A DNA stretch of 64,000 nt from the sequence record EF437941. One strand, written 5' to 3'. The position numbers and the translations under genes were made by a program. This stretch comes from Escherichia phage Phi1. Shown in pieces: positions 47,703-56,647 of the stretch. The notes under the pieces are model-generated. The model worked only from the letters and a program-made list of their open reading frames with translations. It was not told the origin of the DNA and made no database searches. Position 1 is the stretch's first letter, and each line of letters begins with the position of its first letter.

Positions 47703-48101
47703 TTAAGCCAGTCGAGTGAGTTTATAAATTGTTTTAAAGCATAGAGCTTTGATATCGTCTAAAACACTCTGTAACGAGCTATCAACATCATTATAAATCT
47801 CACTAGCCATTTGCGTTAACTCTTGCAAATAGGCAATTTCGCTAATCTCCTTGCGGACGACCAACGTTGGCTGATAACGACCAGTGATCCCAATATTGGT
47901 TTCAGTGAAATTATCAACCAATTCTTGCATTTCAAGATAGAACTCTTCTAGAGCCTTATGTTTTGCATAAGACCCCGGACCAGTTACCCCAAAATGCGCA
48001 GAATGCATATAAGTAACACTCATCAGACATTCACCGATAAAGCGGTCAACTTTATTAGCTTTCCCATCTTCGGACGTCTTTCGAAAATCACTGAATTTCA
48101 T
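47703..48101 (-). CDS. hypothetical protein, possibly ferritin/Dps-like
   Basis: YMHSAHFGVTGPGSYAKHKALEEFY resembles Dps helix-A/B signature; shorter than Dps; start set at internal ATG. Confidence 0.45.
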   Translation of the reverse strand: MKFSDFRKTSEDGKANKVDRFIGECLMSVTYMHSAHFGVTGPGSYAKHKALEEFYLEMQELVDNFTETNIGITGRYQPTLVVRKEISEIAYLQELTQMASEIYNDVDSSLQSVLDDIKALCFKTIYKLTRLA

Positions 48102-48390
48102 GTTCTCGATTCTCCATATTATGCAACATAACAAATTGTTGTGCGGCATATTCCCCCATAATAAAACACTGCTTAGAATCCATACATTTACTACGAGCAT
48201 ACATCTTCATAATATGGGCATGAAATTTCTGGCTGGTTTCAATGGAAGGAGATATTTTGTTTACATATACTATCATTGCACCGTCGAAATAATCAGTAAA
48301 GTCACCAGTTGGATCATATTGATCAGCACTAACGCTTCCGACCGCAGTAAAGCATATTGCCGCTGTTAGAGTTTTACGAATAAATGACAT
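48088..48390 (-). CDS. rI: RI lysis-inhibition antiholin-like periplasmic protein
   Basis: 100 aa; N-terminal signal/anchor; two Cys in C-terminal domain; adjacent to tk; late-promoter motif upstream. Confidence 0.55.
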   Translation of the reverse strand: MSFIRKTLTAAICFTAVGSVSADQYDPTGDFTDYFDGAMIVYVNKISPSIETSQKFHAHIMKMYARSKCMDSKQCFIMGEYAAQQFVMLHNMENREHEIQ

Positions 48391-49391: not shown

Positions 49392-49583
49392 TTAGCCTTC
49401 ATGATGGTCGCAACCTTTATTGCTACAGTACATCCACCAATCCCACATTCCCCACGGTAAACGCTGCATATCGTCGTTACAACAAGTGAAGATGATAGGC
49501 CAACCACATCTAACACATCGGCAGTTTTCTTTCATGTGAGCGGTATTAGGCTTCTTCATAGATGACTCCAATATAATCGACAT
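49392..49583 (-). CDS. Cys-rich small protein
   Basis: 63 aa; CRCVRCG ... CCND ... CSNKGC. Confidence 0.4.
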   Translation of the reverse strand: MSIILESSMKKPNTAHMKENCRCVRCGWPIIFTCCNDDMQRLPWGMWDWWMYCSNKGCDHHEG

Positions 49584-49786
49584 TTACATTTAGGGCAATG
49601 CGGTTCTTTAATATAATACCCGTCTGTCTTTGGAACACTAACAGGAGCGGTTTTTATATTATATTCAGTGAAACAACGAAAACAAGTTACGTTTTCTACA
49701 GACTGACGTTTCACCCAATCACCGGAATATAGATCATTTTTATTTGTCATATTCAACCACCACAATGTTAATGTCTGGAGTAGCAA
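49556..49786 (-). CDS. Cys-rich small protein (zinc-ribbon-like)
   Basis: CFRCF ... CPKCKC. Confidence 0.4.
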   Translation of the reverse strand: MLLQTLTLWWLNMTNKNDLYSGDWVKRQSVENVTCFRCFTEYNIKTAPVSVPKTDGYYIKEPHCPKCKCRLYWSHL

Positions 49787-50195
49787 TATTAATAATCTCT
49801 TCTACACATTCCCACTCAAGGCCACCGATACCGCAACCGATTTTAGGAATATAGAAAGGCTGTATAGCACCTTCAAAAACATCATTGAGAGACTCAAATC
49901 CTTTCAGGATAGCACCATATTCAGCATTTGGACCCGGTCGGAATTGGGTATAGAGATTCACCCCGCACCAGTTATAACCATTAACTTGATGCGTCCAGAT
50001 ACTAAACCCACCCAACTTTTCTACCTTACCGCGAGAAGTTTGCTTGTCAATCTCTAACGCTTGCGGGAACTCTTTCGCGATCTTTGCAGCAATACCAGCG
50101 CCCATAGTATGAAAACAATTACAACCATGAATTAAATGACCGTTTCCTTGTTTAAACAGGGCGATGAGATCGCCCTTTACAGTATCAATAATCAT
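49740..50195 (-). CDS. macro domain protein (ADP-ribose binding/processing)
   Basis: 151 aa; HGCNCFHTMGAGIA and GCGIGG motifs typical of macro domains. Confidence 0.65.
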   Translation of the reverse strand: MIIDTVKGDLIALFKQGNGHLIHGCNCFHTMGAGIAAKIAKEFPQALEIDKQTSRGKVEKLGGFSIWTHQVNGYNWCGVNLYTQFRPGPNAEYGAILKGFESLNDVFEGAIQPFYIPKIGCGIGGLEWECVEEIINIATPDINIVVVEYDK

Positions 50196-50210
50196 AATAT
50201 AAACCTCTCA

Positions 50211-50570
50211 TTAGTCACGGGAAGACAACCCAGCCATAAAACGGCTTAACAGTGTGTCGCGATAAGCAAAGCATAATTGCTTATCAGGGGCAGTATCACA
50301 CAGGTTGCGTTTTGTTTTAGCAAAGCTGGCAATACTCAGATCCCATGCTCGATTTTTTCGTTTTTCGTCTCGACCTTGTTTGTATGCTTCATCAAGTTCG
50401 AGCGCGATAAAATCACTACACATGTTATCATCATCACAGAAAGTTTTAATTATCTTTTTGTTGATCTCAAATCCTTTGTATTCGAACTTTGGATAAGGGC
50501 GCTCATTACTAGCAAGCGCACCAGCCGAGAACATCATAGCAATCATAGCAATTATTGTCAACTTTTTCAT
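50211..50570 (-). CDS. secreted/periplasmic hypothetical protein
   Basis: 119 aa; N-terminal signal peptide (MKKLTIIAMIAMMFSAGALA), four Cys. Confidence 0.5.
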   Translation of the reverse strand: MKKLTIIAMIAMMFSAGALASNERPYPKFEYKGFEINKKIIKTFCDDDNMCSDFIALELDEAYKQGRDEKRKNRAWDLSIASFAKTKRNLCDTAPDKQLCFAYRDTLLSRFMAGLSSRD

Positions 50571-50577
50571 ATATTCC

Positions 50578-51168
50578 TCAATAGCGTTTAGTCTTAAGAA
50601 TGCCTTTACTCTTTAGATGGTTAGCCTTTTTTAGTACGTCATCAGCATAACCTAATCCGGCTTTATAGTTCCATCCAGCATTGTAAGAAGCTAGCGCGAG
50701 TCGGATATTACCGTTTCGAATATCCAGCCAGTATGCTAACTCATCCATCGCGTAGAATGCAGAAACCTCGCGATTCATGATAAAGTTGATAGTCTGGCGA
50801 TCACTCATTTTAACACCACGCTTTGCATTTTTCGCTTTCACCGTTTTAAGGTAATTTTGAAATAATCCATAAGCATGATGATTTTTCTTTGGTGCTAAGT
50901 TTGCACCCGCGCTTGATTCTTGCCATGCGATACCCGCTAGGATGTGGCCTAAACCCTTTCCGTTATAGCGAATATTCGGATGGTACTTTTTCAACTTACC
51001 GCTTTTCTCGAATTGCTCGCCGTATTGATAGGCGAAATGTAAATTATCTAGTTGGTGTGCTGTAAAGTTGTCTATCGGCGCTTTTTTGATCGGTGCGCTA
51101 GTCGATGCGTGTGTAGCACCAACGGCTAGTGACAGACTCAATACTATCGCTTTTAGAACTTTTAACAT
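50578..51168 (-). CDS. soluble lytic transglycosylase-like protein with signal peptide
   Basis: 196 aa; signal peptide; SLT motifs GIAWQES (catalytic Glu) and SYNAG. Confidence 0.65.
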   Translation of the reverse strand: MLKVLKAIVLSLSLAVGATHASTSAPIKKAPIDNFTAHQLDNLHFAYQYGEQFEKSGKLKKYHPNIRYNGKGLGHILAGIAWQESSAGANLAPKKNHHAYGLFQNYLKTVKAKNAKRGVKMSDRQTINFIMNREVSAFYAMDELAYWLDIRNGNIRLALASYNAGWNYKAGLGYADDVLKKANHLKSKGILKTKRY

Positions 51169-51204
51169 TAATTTCTCCTGTTTGGCTTAACTTTCTGATT
51201 CCAT

Positions 51205-51231
51205 AATATAGCCCTATCACCAGAAAGTCAA
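51205..51231 (-). promoter_or_regulatory. promoter (TTGACT-N15-TATATT; possible MotA-box-like TGCTTGA)
   Basis: minus strand AATGCTTGACT...TATATT upstream of SLT gene. Confidence 0.35.
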
Positions 51232-51254
51232 GCATTATTTTTAACCAATTTCCA

Positions 51255-51677
51255 TTATTGGTCTACCTTCAAAACAACCGCCGACATTTTACCCGCCAGT
51301 CGTTTTGGATTCTCTATAATCATTCGGCAGCATAGACCGTGATATGGCTTACCCTCTTCGATTAGATCTACTGTCATCCCGATCCACATGTTACCGTCAG
51401 TAATTTCTAATCGATTAGGTCGGTCTTCCATTTTCAGGAAGTCGAAGATCTCCGGCAAACGAGTTTCTATCTTATTGAATAGTTCCATTGTCTTATGTTC
51501 ATCAATATGACGATCGGTTAGACGGTCGATCATATGCGGACTAAAGCGAATGAAAATATACTCACCATAACCATCATTCAAGCACTTTTCTTTGATCTTC
51601 GCATTGGTTTTGCGCATTTCGGTTTCGAAGAATCTACGCAGCTTACTACGGCGAACATGTACGTTAATTGTTTCCAT
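51255..51677 (-). CDS. regB: RegB site-specific endoribonuclease
   Basis: RRSKLRRFFETE, RLEITDGNMWIGMTV, CRMIIENPKRLAGK match T4 RegB as remembered; start at ATG after AAGGA. Confidence 0.85.
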   Translation of the reverse strand: METINVHVRRSKLRRFFETEMRKTNAKIKEKCLNDGYGEYIFIRFSPHMIDRLTDRHIDEHKTMELFNKIETRLPEIFDFLKMEDRPNRLEITDGNMWIGMTVDLIEEGKPYHGLCCRMIIENPKRLAGKMSAVVLKVDQ

Positions 51678-51681
51678 TTTA

Positions 51682-52017
51682 TTATCCTTTCTTAAACAAA
51701 TTGCGAATCCAGTATACAAACGGGATTTCTTTAAACTTGAATTTCTCTATAGTTAATTCTTTAGTAGCAAGATGAATACCATAAGCATCATGTGTCACGA
51801 TATGCCATTTTCTATAGTCCAAATGTGAACAACCGTCTGGATCTAGGTTAATAAGAGTTTCTCGCTCACTAGGATTATTTTTCCACAATTTTGTAATAGG
51901 ATCGCACATAATTCGACCTAGCGTACCATGAATAATCTCACAACGGTAAAGTTTTCCAGCAGTGAGATAGGCGCACCCGTCATAGTCGGTATAAACAAAC
52001 ACTTCTTTAACACTCAT
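51682..52017 (-). CDS. paralog family C protein
   Basis: DGCAYL ... DPDGCSHLDYRKW; internal ATG after AAGGAG. Confidence 0.5.
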   Translation of the reverse strand: MSVKEVFVYTDYDGCAYLTAGKLYRCEIIHGTLGRIMCDPITKLWKNNPSERETLINLDPDGCSHLDYRKWHIVTHDAYGIHLATKELTIEKFKFKEIPFVYWIRNLFKKG

Positions 52018-54417: not shown

Positions 54418-54807
54418 TTATTTTTGGTCTGGGTATTTGCTGTGTGGTAATTGTAGATGAGGACCATCTTTAAACGATACCCAATCCCCACCCCATTCAA
54501 CAGGAACACCCAATTCTCGACCAGCTTGTTTAAATGCATCAGCGATCATGCGGTAATATTTCATATTCCATGTATCTTTATCTTTCGGATACGCTACAAC
54601 GTCAACCGCGAAACCGTGAAGATGACGAGATTTCATAGTCTTAGATTTACCTTCCGCAACATATTTCTTTTGCGTTGCGAGACTACGCACACCTTCCGTA
54701 ATACCAAAATCGACCGGAGTCAGTTCTAACGCACGATGAACGACTTTTACCAGGTCTGGATGTACACCAACAAGCCGATCTTTGCTTCTTTGAGATAATT
54801 TAAACAT
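54418..54807 (-). CDS. endolysin, L-alanyl-D-glutamate peptidase (peptidase M15/VanY-like)
   Basis: 129 aa; SRHLHGFAVDV zinc-binding motif (SxHxxGxAxD) and C-terminal His; occupies the position of lysozyme e. Confidence 0.8.
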   Translation of the reverse strand: MFKLSQRSKDRLVGVHPDLVKVVHRALELTPVDFGITEGVRSLATQKKYVAEGKSKTMKSRHLHGFAVDVVAYPKDKDTWNMKYYRMIADAFKQAGRELGVPVEWGGDWVSFKDGPHLQLPHSKYPDQK

Positions 54808-54835: not shown

Positions 54836-55027
54836 TTAGATTCCGGCGATCCTGCATAGAGTTCTTGTATTAGCACCAATAAGGATAGCATTAACGACAA
54901 CCATTCCCCAATCAACCCACGGATTATTATAAATGTTAAATCCGTTTGTTAGGCCAAATACAAGCATTCCAGTACACATACTCAGAGCAACAATCAACAT
55001 CACGGTAAAACCAAATGCAAATCTCAT
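54836..55027 (-). CDS. small membrane protein
   Basis: 63 aa, two hydrophobic helices. Confidence 0.45.
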   Translation of the reverse strand: MRFAFGFTVMLIVALSMCTGMLVFGLTNGFNIYNNPWVDWGMVVVNAILIGANTRTLCRIAGI

Positions 55028-55028
55028 A

Positions 55029-55295
55029 TCATTTTCCTTTTCTCTGTTTACGTTTATAAAAGTAATACATTACATCATCACGTCCGGTGATCCAACATGC
55101 TAGGGCAGTAAACAGGTTTACAATTCCCAACACACCTACTGACGCGGCGCTGTCAACAGACATAGGAACAGTAAAGGCCATAGCTAACATAGCAACGCCA
55201 CAAATGACATTAAGCACCATTATAATAAGACCGAAGAAAACCATTGTCAATCCTCCCAAATAAGAAAACCAACAATCACGCCAGTGATAAGACAT
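55029..55295 (-). CDS. small membrane protein
   Basis: 88 aa, hydrophobic. Confidence 0.45.
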   Translation of the reverse strand: MSYHWRDCWFSYLGGLTMVFFGLIIMVLNVICGVAMLAMAFTVPMSVDSAASVGVLGIVNLFTALACWITGRDDVMYYFYKRKQRKGK

Positions 55296-55438
55296 GATGC
55301 GCCGCTAATAAGACAACCCGCGCCAAGTGATTCCCACCAGATCAGAGAAGCGACAATAACGCAAAATCCCCAGACTACCGCAATCACAACATAGGCAATG
55401 GTCGCCCAAAACATATATTTGTTCATAATAAACCCCAT
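55247..55438 (-). CDS. small membrane protein
   Basis: 63 aa, hydrophobic. Confidence 0.4.
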   Translation of the reverse strand: MGFIMNKYMFWATIAYVVIAVVWGFCVIVASLIWWESLGAGCLISGASCLITGVIVGFLIWED

Positions 55439-55611
55439 TCACCAAACAAATAAGAAAAAAGCCATATCAACAGAAACGAGGCAATTGATCCGGCAAGCAA
55501 AATGATATTAGAGAATCCGCCGTCTATCCAGGCGACAAAACAGAATACGCCAGTATAGAAGCATAAACCCATTACAAAGCATACTATAAGCAACCATAGA
55601 CAAAACGCCAT
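55423..55611 (-). CDS. small membrane protein
   Basis: 62 aa, hydrophobic. Confidence 0.4.
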   Translation of the reverse strand: MAFCLWLLIVCFVMGLCFYTGVFCFVAWIDGGFSNIILLAGSIASFLLIWLFSYLFGEWGLL

Positions 55612-55672
55612 AGAAAGCCCTCCATCGAGATAAATTAGTGCGGGTAGGGGACTGCACTACCCGCTTTGTTAA

Positions 55673-55831
55673 TCAACGCAGAGCTTGTTCTAGCGCGATC
55701 CCAAACCATCCACAAACAACGCCCATACAGACAGCTACAAGAAGATTCATTCTCTCTTTAGGGATCATTGCAATCATAACAACAACCATACAGAAAGCCA
55801 TTACCATTGAAGTTAACATTTGTTCAACCAT
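55673..55831 (-). CDS. small membrane protein (52 aa)
   Basis: manual translation MVEQMLTSMVMAFCMVVVMIAM... Confidence 0.35.
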   Translation of the reverse strand: MVEQMLTSMVMAFCMVVVMIAMIPKERMNLLVAVCMGVVCGWFGIALEQALR

Positions 55832-55833
55832 TA

Positions 55834-56172
55834 TCACACCTTTAAAGTCATAGACGCATAAACATTAATGCCAGGCCAGTTAGGATCGCAATTATACTCA
55901 ACATCCCACAAATAAAGCGGTTTAGATGTATCAGCCAAGTTTTTAAAATCTTCTACCCACATTTCAATGCTATATGATGGATAAACTAGGCTGTCATATC
56001 CTCCGTAACGTTGGCCTACTGGTCGGTCAGTAAAAACTACCTCAAGATCCGGTAATTCTTTTTCAAGGATAACCGCCAGCGCATAAATCAGACGGTCTTC
56101 CTTGTTACGCTGCCGAAGGACCGTTGTCAGTTGGTTTTTCTGGTTCACTAGCAAGCACCTCCACATTTTCAC
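55834..56172 (-). CDS. hypothetical protein (start uncertain; overlaps upstream ORF by 68 nt)
   Basis: 112-aa ORF. Confidence 0.4.
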   Translation of the reverse strand: MKMWRCLLVNQKNQLTTVLRQRNKEDRLIYALAVILEKELPDLEVVFTDRPVGQRYGGYDSLVYPSYSIEMWVEDFKNLADTSKPLYLWDVEYNCDPNWPGINVYASMTLKV

Positions 56173-56425
56173 AGAATGAAATTTTCACAGACACAATTTT
56201 ACCATAAGTGAAGAATGAATATACATTATCGATATATTCAACGTCACCTACAATCACATCAAACTGCGGATCAGCAACCGCCGCAACATATTCTACCAGT
56301 TCATCAAGAGAATGCAACTTAATTTCATCAATTCGGCTGTATTTGGTTGCATCTTTGATTTTAAAACCACGTTCTTTCAGCTTATCAATTAGAATTTCAC
56401 GCGGAGTTTCAAACAGTTTGCTCAT
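56105..56425 (-). CDS. hypothetical protein
   Basis: 106-aa ORF with GAGGATT RBS. Confidence 0.5.
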   Translation of the reverse strand: MSKLFETPREILIDKLKERGFKIKDATKYSRIDEIKLHSLDELVEYVAAVADPQFDVIVGDVEYIDNVYSFFTYGKIVSVKISFCENVEVLASEPEKPTDNGPSAA

Positions 56426-56446
56426 AATATAATCCTCACATTAAAT

Positions 56447-56647
56447 CTAAAATTTGTTAACGACGAATTGCATAATTAGACTAATCACAAACATTGCAAA
56501 CCAAGTATAAATGCAACAGATAAAAGCTACATACAATTCAATCTGGTCAGAGAATACACCGGGTAAAAGCATTAGCAAAATAACAACAGTAAAGACGCTA
56601 GCGATACCCGCAACAAAACCAATATCATTTTTACTAATCGTCATCAA
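56447..56647 (-). CDS. small membrane protein
   Basis: 66 aa hydrophobic. Confidence 0.45.
   Translation of the reverse strand: MMTISKNDIGFVAGIASVFTVVILLMLLPGVFSDQIELYVAFICCIYTWFAMFVISLIMQFVVNKF

Follow-up and report, generated by a model that had tools for sequence, protein, structure and literature searches.

The vs.1-vs locus

The 64,000-nucleotide stretch of Escherichia phage Phi1 analysed here (EF437941; the window, at this full length) carries two adjacent open reading frames (ORFs) of 196 and 119 amino acids (aa), which an earlier note, made from the letters alone, had placed among early genes and read as a secreted lytic transglycosylase (LT) and a second signal-peptide protein. Both were found at exactly the positions given there, 50578..51168 and 50211..50570, on the minus strand. 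The window comes from an RB49-like T4-type phage (Krischvirus): 2.1 kb around the two ORFs is 99% identical to GEC-3S, RB49 and about 55 other Krischvirus genomes, and in the deposited RB49-group phages the two proteins are 97-100% identical. The 196-aa ORF is vs.1 and the 119-aa ORF is vs, both catalogued T4-family genes, and in RB49 these are labelled 'conserved hypothetical protein' and 'valyl-tRNA synthetase modifier', respectively. It may be noted that the earlier note mentioned neither these identities nor the clash between the latter label and the predicted export of the protein. The gene order regB-vs.1-vs-tk.4-...-tk-rI is the same in the window, RB49 and T4, and every gene of this region is carried by the minus strand. 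Plus-strand ORFs over vs.1 and vs (104, 63, 58 and 40 aa) were set aside as antisense artefacts because all homologues and annotations are on the minus strand. An Rfam scan of 49500-52000 gave no credible match.

A putative sigma70-like early promoter lies 35 nt upstream of vs.1 (Table 1), and the GEC-3S record annotates the same site as promoter, -35 and -10. The T4 orthologues of both genes are classed as early RNA and middle protein (PMC9697503 supplements), which agrees with the earlier placement among early genes. Also, the best match in a 3-kb scan is a second sigma70-like site at 50533-50561 on the minus strand (TTGACA-17-TATGAT with an upstream TG, 11/12 matches), within the first codons of vs. 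A transcript from this site would leave out the vs start codon and cover tk.4 and later genes, and the site may be a chance match. Control by RegB through a GGAG Shine-Dalgarno sequence was considered and dropped: the motif stands before vs.1 in the window, Acj61 and FelixO1, whereas T4, Melville, KP179 and PSTCR6 lack it there.

Predicted export and transglycosylase features

The Vs.1 protein matches the Pfam SLT domain (PF01464) over residues 76-167 with 25.6 bits as against a gathering score of 21.3 (E 9.6e-6), and SLT is matched at E <= 0.01 by 16 of 17 diverse Vs.1 homologues. The two SLT motifs picked out in the earlier note are borne out, with GIAWQES at residues 79-85 and SYNAG at 161-165, and GLFQ is found at 101-104. 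An alignment was made of 17 Vs.1 sequences down to 28% identity, from T4-like phages, Cba120, FelixO1, Aeh1 and a Vibrio phage, and in it E84, G101, W147, Y162, G165 and Y174 are invariant. In a second alignment of 23 sequences E84, G101, Y162, G165 and Y174 are again invariant, so that the catalytic Glu is present throughout both sets. Within YGLFQN, residues F103, Q104 and N105 are kept at a level of at least 90%, and the E-S, G-x-F-Q and S-Y-N-x-G motifs are retained among the homologues. The model of Vs.1 has a goose-lysozyme-like alpha-helical fold, with E84 of the E-S motif placed at the C-terminal end of helix 74-85.

The best PDB match of the Vs.1 profile is EtgA (E 0.0017), aligned via WQES/WNES and AYNAG. 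In PDB searches with single sequences Vs.1 gave no meaningful match and Vs none whatever, and neither protein matched NCBIfam. EtgA, from the type III secretion system of enteropathogenic Escherichia coli (PDB 8urn, 4xp8), resembles Vs.1 in being small, in having a single SLT-type domain (8urn comprises EtgA residues 18-152) and in its aligned catalytic E-S and AYNAG. The two are only about 20% identical, however, and EtgA serves a secretion system whereas no envelope-spanning machine is known for Vs.1. EtgA also has an extra Asp giving it lysozyme-like features (entry 'EtgA D60N'), whereas no conserved second acidic residue is evident in the 17-sequence Vs.1 alignment, which would fit a transglycosylase better than a lysozyme. 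With the housekeeping family-1 LTs (Slt70, MltF, MltC, MltD, MltE; PF01464, GH23) Vs.1 has in common the catalytic Glu, the motifs and the predicted periplasmic site. Unlike them it has no accessory domain (superhelical U/L, LysM or ABC-type) and no lipobox, it is phage-encoded and early, and in T4-like phages it has a clade-specific insertion of 10-18 residues before the catalytic helix.

Vs.1 matches phrog_600 at 1.3e-59. The T4 Vs.1 protein (T4p112; phrog_600) is the orthologue of the window protein, at 48% identity over the alignment, and both have the signal-peptide-like N-terminus, the E-S, GxFQ and SYNxG motifs and the synteny regB-vs.1-vs-tk.4. The RB49-type protein differs in being 15 residues longer at the mature N-terminus (ASTSAPIKKAPID). 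Homologues of Vs.1 are present in 2063 phage records, with orthologues in T4-like, Ackermannviridae and FelixO1-like phages. A putative exported and early wall-cutting enzyme is conserved in over 2000 genomes from three groups of phages. Two weaker matches, phrog_2013 'lytic tail protein' at E 0.0022 and phrog_342 'internal virion protein with endolysin domain' at E 0.005, are due to nothing more than the SLT domain in common (Vs.1 residues 76-171). That vs.1 resembles SLT was published in 2006 (Nolan et al. 2006, PMC1524935), in a paper that also cites an earlier report based on PSI-BLAST. In the searchable papers no function is assigned to any member of the Vs.1 family, and among those after 2006 none connects the phage gene vs.1 with a transglycosylase or the periplasm. 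For a phage LT-motif protein exported by host secretion apart from the main endolysin, the Tgl protein of staphylococcal Kayvirus may be compared, as described in PMC7150955. It is likened to Vs.1 by description only, and differs in its Gram-positive host and in being related to IsaA/SceD, not to the Slt family.

Two more familiar roles of such enzymes were considered for Vs.1 and rejected. It is not the main endolysin of a lysis cassette, as T4 vs.1 has an early mRNA and is non-essential and the window has a separate endolysin, an M15 peptidase (Table 1); this upholds the placement of the gene outside the lysis genes in the earlier note. Nor does it fit a virion-associated entry transglycosylase of the T7 gp16 or PRD1 P7 type, which is packaged in the virion, as a rule within a larger structural protein.

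Signal peptides were called by our own heuristic analysis of n-, h- and c-regions together with the conservation of the property among homologues. For a Sec (type I) peptide this required a positive n-region, an h-region of 7-15 residues, small residues at -3 and -1 and no further transmembrane segment. Both Vs.1 and Vs start with an n-region of charge +2, followed by 13-18 residues that are hydrophobic and carry no charge, and then by a small-x-small site (THA↓S in Vs.1, ALA↓S in Vs), with no later hydrophobic segment and no lipobox. In the Vs.1 model, low confidence by the predicted local distance difference test (pLDDT) at residues 18-29 marks a linker past the N-terminal helix. A positive n-region, a hydrophobic stretch shorter than about 20 residues and a hydrophilic remainder were found together only in Vs.1 and Vs among 122 gene-like ORFs of the window, a set from which the overlap filter had left out the rI antiholin. 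The signal-peptide-like N-terminus recurs in 24 of 25 Vs.1 homologues and 63 of 66 Vs homologues although the N-terminal sequences themselves are unrelated; the homologues that fail are truncated gene calls or one false hit. The signal peptides that the earlier note had seen on both proteins thus look Sec-like here as well. Lack of the catalytic Glu or of a predicted signal peptide, either of which would have refuted that note, was not observed. Conserved Cys pairs in distant Vs.1 clades, and the four invariant Cys of Vs described below, fit an oxidising compartment. Full-length His-tagged T4 Vs was insoluble in the cytoplasm (PMC8076793). Judged from these sequence features, Vs.1 is very probably an exported lytic transglycosylase, and Vs is likely to be exported too.

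The Vs family and its linkage to vs.1

Vs matches phrog_1256 at 1.8e-33, and PF26829 is assigned to a protein cluster (P0026) that is 97% identical to the window Vs. A profile search of 1.84 billion representative proteins returned 27 clusters only, all of them members or fragments of the family except a spurious repeat protein (P0089), and no distant family was found in it. Vs is a small family confined to T4-like phages. The T4 protein (T4p111; PF26829; phrog_1256) aligns with the window Vs and keeps the four Cys, the C-terminal GL motif and the place after vs.1, but identity is about 24% and the RB49-type mature protein has an extra N-terminal stretch of about 15 residues.

The four Cys noticed earlier in the 119-aa protein are at residues 45, 51, 91 and 100. 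All four are invariant in an alignment of 41 Vs sequences, along with G66 and G114, and past the N-terminal segment the Cys count is exactly four in 60 of 66 members. The AlphaFold2 model of Vs (pLDDT 75.6) has four helices, with C45 and C51 flanking the turn between helices 1 and 2, and C91 and C100 flanking the loop before helix 4; from this we infer that the pairs C45-C51 and C91-C100 may form disulfides. A known inhibitor of lysozymes or LTs (Ivy, MliC/PliC, PliG) was tried as an identity for Vs and rejected: those have beta-rich folds with inhibitory loops, and the Vs model is all-helical and matched no inhibitor fold.

The linkage from vs.1 to vs is tight. In the window 7 nt separate the two genes (TGA GGAATAT ATG), and TAATG or 8-nt stop/start overlaps are seen in T4 (8 nt), Acj61, Melville, KP179 and PSTCR6. 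The loci with vs that we examined, annotated or metagenomic, are those of T4, the RB49 group, Acj61, Melville, KP179, PSTCR6 and three metagenomic contigs, and in 11 of 11 vs occurs only directly downstream of vs.1. In IMG/VR, where the linkage was counted from the Vs.1 side and vs was sought within 3 kb, 48 of 79 vs.1 loci have vs downstream, with a junction of -8 to +7 nt in 40 of the 48. In the remaining 8 (among L015-L093) vs lies 471-1216 nt downstream with intervening sequence. The other 31 of the 79 loci have no vs within 3 kb. On dividing the Vs.1 proteins by the presence of vs, those associated with Vs have the insertion of 10-18 residues before the catalytic helix and mostly no Cys, whereas those of vs-less phages are mostly without the insertion and have 2-4 Cys (one near the mature N-terminus, one near the C-terminus, some with an additional CxxxC).

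Some further arrangements were seen around these genes. In Aeh1 and FelixO1 vs.1 adjoins pseT (polynucleotide kinase) and Rz-like spanin genes (L005:1541-2208, L004:4250-4597) and not regB or vs. Directly after vs in Acj61, Melville, KP179, PSTCR6 and a metagenomic phage there is a gene for a phrog_4957 protein (130-147 aa, two conserved Cys, signal-peptide-like). The window and the T4 locus have no such gene. In Acj61 and in L014, a metagenomic locus, the rI antiholin gene lies next to or soon after it, giving a run of genes with predicted exported products.

Possible roles of the pair and neighbouring genes

The observation made in the earlier note is confirmed, and its interpretation is partly supported. 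Both genes and the SLT similarity of vs.1 were already known; the remaining interest lies in the features of Vs as against its annotation, in its strict link to the transglycosylase gene and in a minimal-medium phenotype. That phenotype comes from the HIDEN-SEQ transposon data for T4 (10.1101/2025.11.20.689424), in which vs and vs.1 are both non-essential and 46 of the 52 TA sites of vs.1 were hit. Mean insertion reads in liquid LB were 26.6 for vs and 22.6 for vs.1, as against 120-770 for neighbouring non-essential genes, and the holin gene t had zero reads in the same liquid-culture dataset. When M9-glucose was compared with LB, vs was the most depleted T4 gene (log2 fold change -2.19, adjusted p 0), i.e. 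the one most needed in minimal medium, and vs.1 had a log2 fold change of -0.87 (p 0.0055, adjusted p 0.155). The authors of that 2025 screen ascribe the vs effect to modification of valyl-tRNA synthetase (ValRS); their main text does not take up vs.1, and neither the export signal nor the linked transglycosylase is noted.

Our best reading, which we put forward tentatively and rate as falling a little short of probable, is that Vs.1 and Vs make up an early periplasmic module for cell-wall remodelling. What we infer of export, signal-peptide cleavage, disulfides, enzymatic activity, partnership and physiological purpose runs as follows. From the promoter at 51231-51203, vs.1 and vs would be transcribed as one early unit. 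Vs.1 would be made as a 21.9-kDa precursor, exported by Sec and cut after about Ala21, and the mature protein of about 19.8 kDa, basic with an isoelectric point of about 9.9, would act in the periplasm as a family-1 LT whose Glu84 cuts the bond between N-acetylmuramic acid (MurNAc) and N-acetylglucosamine in peptidoglycan to leave a 1,6-anhydroMurNAc end. Vs, made from this message by coupled translation, would likewise be exported and cleaved at Ala20 to about 11.6 kDa, and its four helices would be stapled by two local disulfides (C45-C51 and C91-C100). It would then work alongside Vs.1, most likely by tuning or targeting the enzyme as its partner, so that the wall of the infected cell is remodelled or loosened without lysis. 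Such a module would be dispensable yet raise phage fitness, most clearly in nutrient-poor medium. There is a precedent in EtgA, a small exported lytic transglycosylase controlled by the binding of a small helical partner, EscI (PMC10880428), and we use this pair as a model for the proposed relation although Vs is not homologous to EscI. The functional partnership between Vs.1 and Vs we regard as possible, with considerable doubt. If the pair does act on the cell wall, a textbook annotation of 50 years would have to be revised, and wall remodelling would count towards the fitness of phages growing in starved hosts.

A number of points weigh against such a module. Vs has long been annotated as a factor that binds the cytoplasmic ValRS of the host (Muller & Marchin 1975/1977, as cited in PMC8076793), and a function of Vs in translation would account for the M9 phenotype just as naturally. 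The vs knockout is clearly worse than the vs.1 knockout in M9, which argues that Vs is not simply an obligate co-factor of Vs.1, and a bias in insertion, or polarity, is another possible source of the transposon read differences. Vs.1 is encoded without Vs by Ackermannviridae, FelixO1-like phages, Aeh1, some Aeromonas phages and Vibrio phages, so the enzyme needs no Vs. Phylogeny confounds the relation between Vs presence and the pattern of insertion and Cys, and the insertion is retained at three vs-less loci. Also, the four Cys of Vs could bind zinc instead of forming disulfides.

Several of these points would be explained if the label is right, that is, if Vs is the classical tau factor binding cytoplasmic ValRS, with an N-terminus that either is no export signal or has another role besides, if Vs.1 is a periplasmic LT without relation to it, and if their adjacency is synteny without functional coupling. 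This account has on its side the label 'valyl-tRNA synthetase modifier' that Vs bears in RB49, T4 and hundreds of records, the Pfam name ValRS_modifier of PF26829, the classical biochemistry just cited, and the several phage families with Vs.1 and no Vs. It would also suit the depletion of vs in minimal medium, in which translation is limited by the supply of amino acids, and the far smaller effect of vs.1. We nevertheless hold it to be somewhat unlikely. Signal-peptide properties kept in 63 of 66 homologues despite sequence drift, with exactly four Cys in the mature part in 60 of 66, are what exported proteins usually show and would be uncommon in a protein that binds its target in the cytoplasm, and vs overlaps or abuts the gene of a putative exported enzyme in 40 of 48 loci. 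Taken together, the signal-peptide-like N-terminus, the four invariant Cys and the coupling to that gene fit poorly with the label of a cytoplasmic ValRS modifier. Moreover, the 1986 sequence record of T4 gives the gene only as 'ORF 60.9', which means that the assignment of this ORF to vs came later. The computed mass of T4 Vs is 11.05 kDa for the predicted mature form and 13.06 kDa for the precursor; tau factor was reportedly about 10 kDa, closer to the cleaved form. On the other side, vs mutants are said to have been selected on valS(ts) hosts, which would indicate an effect on ValRS in vivo, and on that account the classical reading is kept as a strong rival. One may go further than the module and propose that in the infected cell Vs is no cytoplasmic ValRS modifier but an exported, disulfide-bonded partner or regulator of periplasmic Vs.1. 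The ValRS link would then stem from a later mis-assignment of the ORF or from binding only after cell breakage, and the minimal-medium defect of T4 delta-vs would be a phenotype of the cell wall and not of translation. In this full form we consider the proposal unlikely.

The lysis-timing role suggested in the earlier note can be put as Vs being a periplasmic inhibitor, or antidote, that restrains a potentially lethal Vs.1 until lysis, the pair then being mainly a device that times or assists lysis and is linked to the RI antiholin. An unrestrained and damaging Vs.1 would explain why loss of vs is more harmful in M9 than loss of vs.1, translational coupling would yield matched amounts of the two proteins, and the genes keep suggestive company, with vs.1, vs, the third signal-peptide protein and rI contiguous in Acj61 and L014 and vs.1 near spanin genes in Aeh1 and FelixO1. 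A pure antidote, however, predicts that insertions in vs.1 are neutral, and they are themselves under-represented in LB to a degree similar to those in vs; this argues that Vs is not only an antidote, with the caveats of polarity and insertion bias. Many phages have Vs.1 and no Vs, the all-helical Vs model is without a match to known inhibitor folds, and T4 lysis genetics (t, e, rI, rIII, spanins) explains lysis without the non-essential vs.1. On balance we find this device improbable. Still less can be said for an action of Vs.1 as infection begins, whether in DNA entry, as an enzyme carried in the virion to pierce the wall, or in superinfection exclusion, through an altered wall, both of which the earlier note had also proposed. 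The weak similarity to phrog_2013 and phrog_342, with their virion lytic annotations, would suit entry, and early expression would suit exclusion. But those matches are to the SLT domain only, and a predicted cleavable Sec signal peptide would take Vs.1 out of the cytoplasm, where virions are assembled. T4 vs.1 is also non-essential, unlike an entry enzyme. In T4-type phages gp5 serves entry and Imm and Sp serve exclusion. A stand-alone, dispensable and predicted Sec-exported protein made after infection is thus an unlikely entry enzyme, and the two early roles together seem to us very improbable.

Table 1. Features of the vs.1-vs locus and of related loci; positions refer to the window unless a locus (L) is named
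Feature	Position	Strand	Basis or remark
vs.1 orthologue, 196-aa precursor, putative exported family-1 lytic transglycosylase	50578..51168	-	
Predicted Sec signal peptide of Vs.1, residues 1 to ~21, MLKVLKAIVLSLSLAVGATHA↓S	51106..51168	-	heuristic and homologues
SLT catalytic domain, residues 76-167	50668..50943	-	Pfam envelope
Glu84 codon	50917-50919	-	codon position checked
7-nt vs.1-vs junction	50571..50577	-	sequence
vs orthologue, 119-aa precursor, small four-Cys helical protein	50211..50570	-	PF26829 'ValRS_modifier', phrog_1256
Predicted Sec signal peptide of Vs, residues 1-20, MKKLTIIAMIAMMFSAGALA↓S	50511..50570	-	heuristic and homologues
Putative sigma70-like early promoter, TTGACT-17-TATTAT	51203..51231	-	consensus scan, 10/12 matches
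tk.4 orthologue, next after vs, macrodomain protein	49740-50195	-	Pfam Macro 6e-7
Endolysin of the window, M15 peptidase, separate from vs.1	54418-54807		
vs-less Vs.1 loci (Ackermannviridae, FelixO1-like, Aeh1, Vibrio D509)	L003:2495-3112, L004:2501-3049, L005:2504-3028, L006:2525-3079		plus 31 IMG/VR loci (subset of L047-L093)
phrog_4957 genes after vs	L007:1830-2255, L008:1824-2225, L009:1740-2132, L010:1725-2165, L014:3327-3770		

Among the neighbouring genes, the T4 counterpart of tk.4 has lately been named AdfM, an anti-DarT2 factor (preprint 10.1101/2025.11.20.689424). At 54836-56644 on the minus strand there are five small ORFs (52-88 aa), each consisting mostly of hydrophobic, transmembrane-like segments and labelled hypothetical in RB49, which precede the M15 endolysin gene in the direction of transcription. 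Towards the other end of the region, the mechanically called 165-aa ORF of rI.-1 (DUF5856; 47703-48200 on the minus strand, with an entry at 48088-48390 on the same strand) shares about 110 nt with the end of rI. In RB49 the annotated start of rI.-1 lies further in, giving 133 aa, and the 165-aa form probably has an over-extended start.

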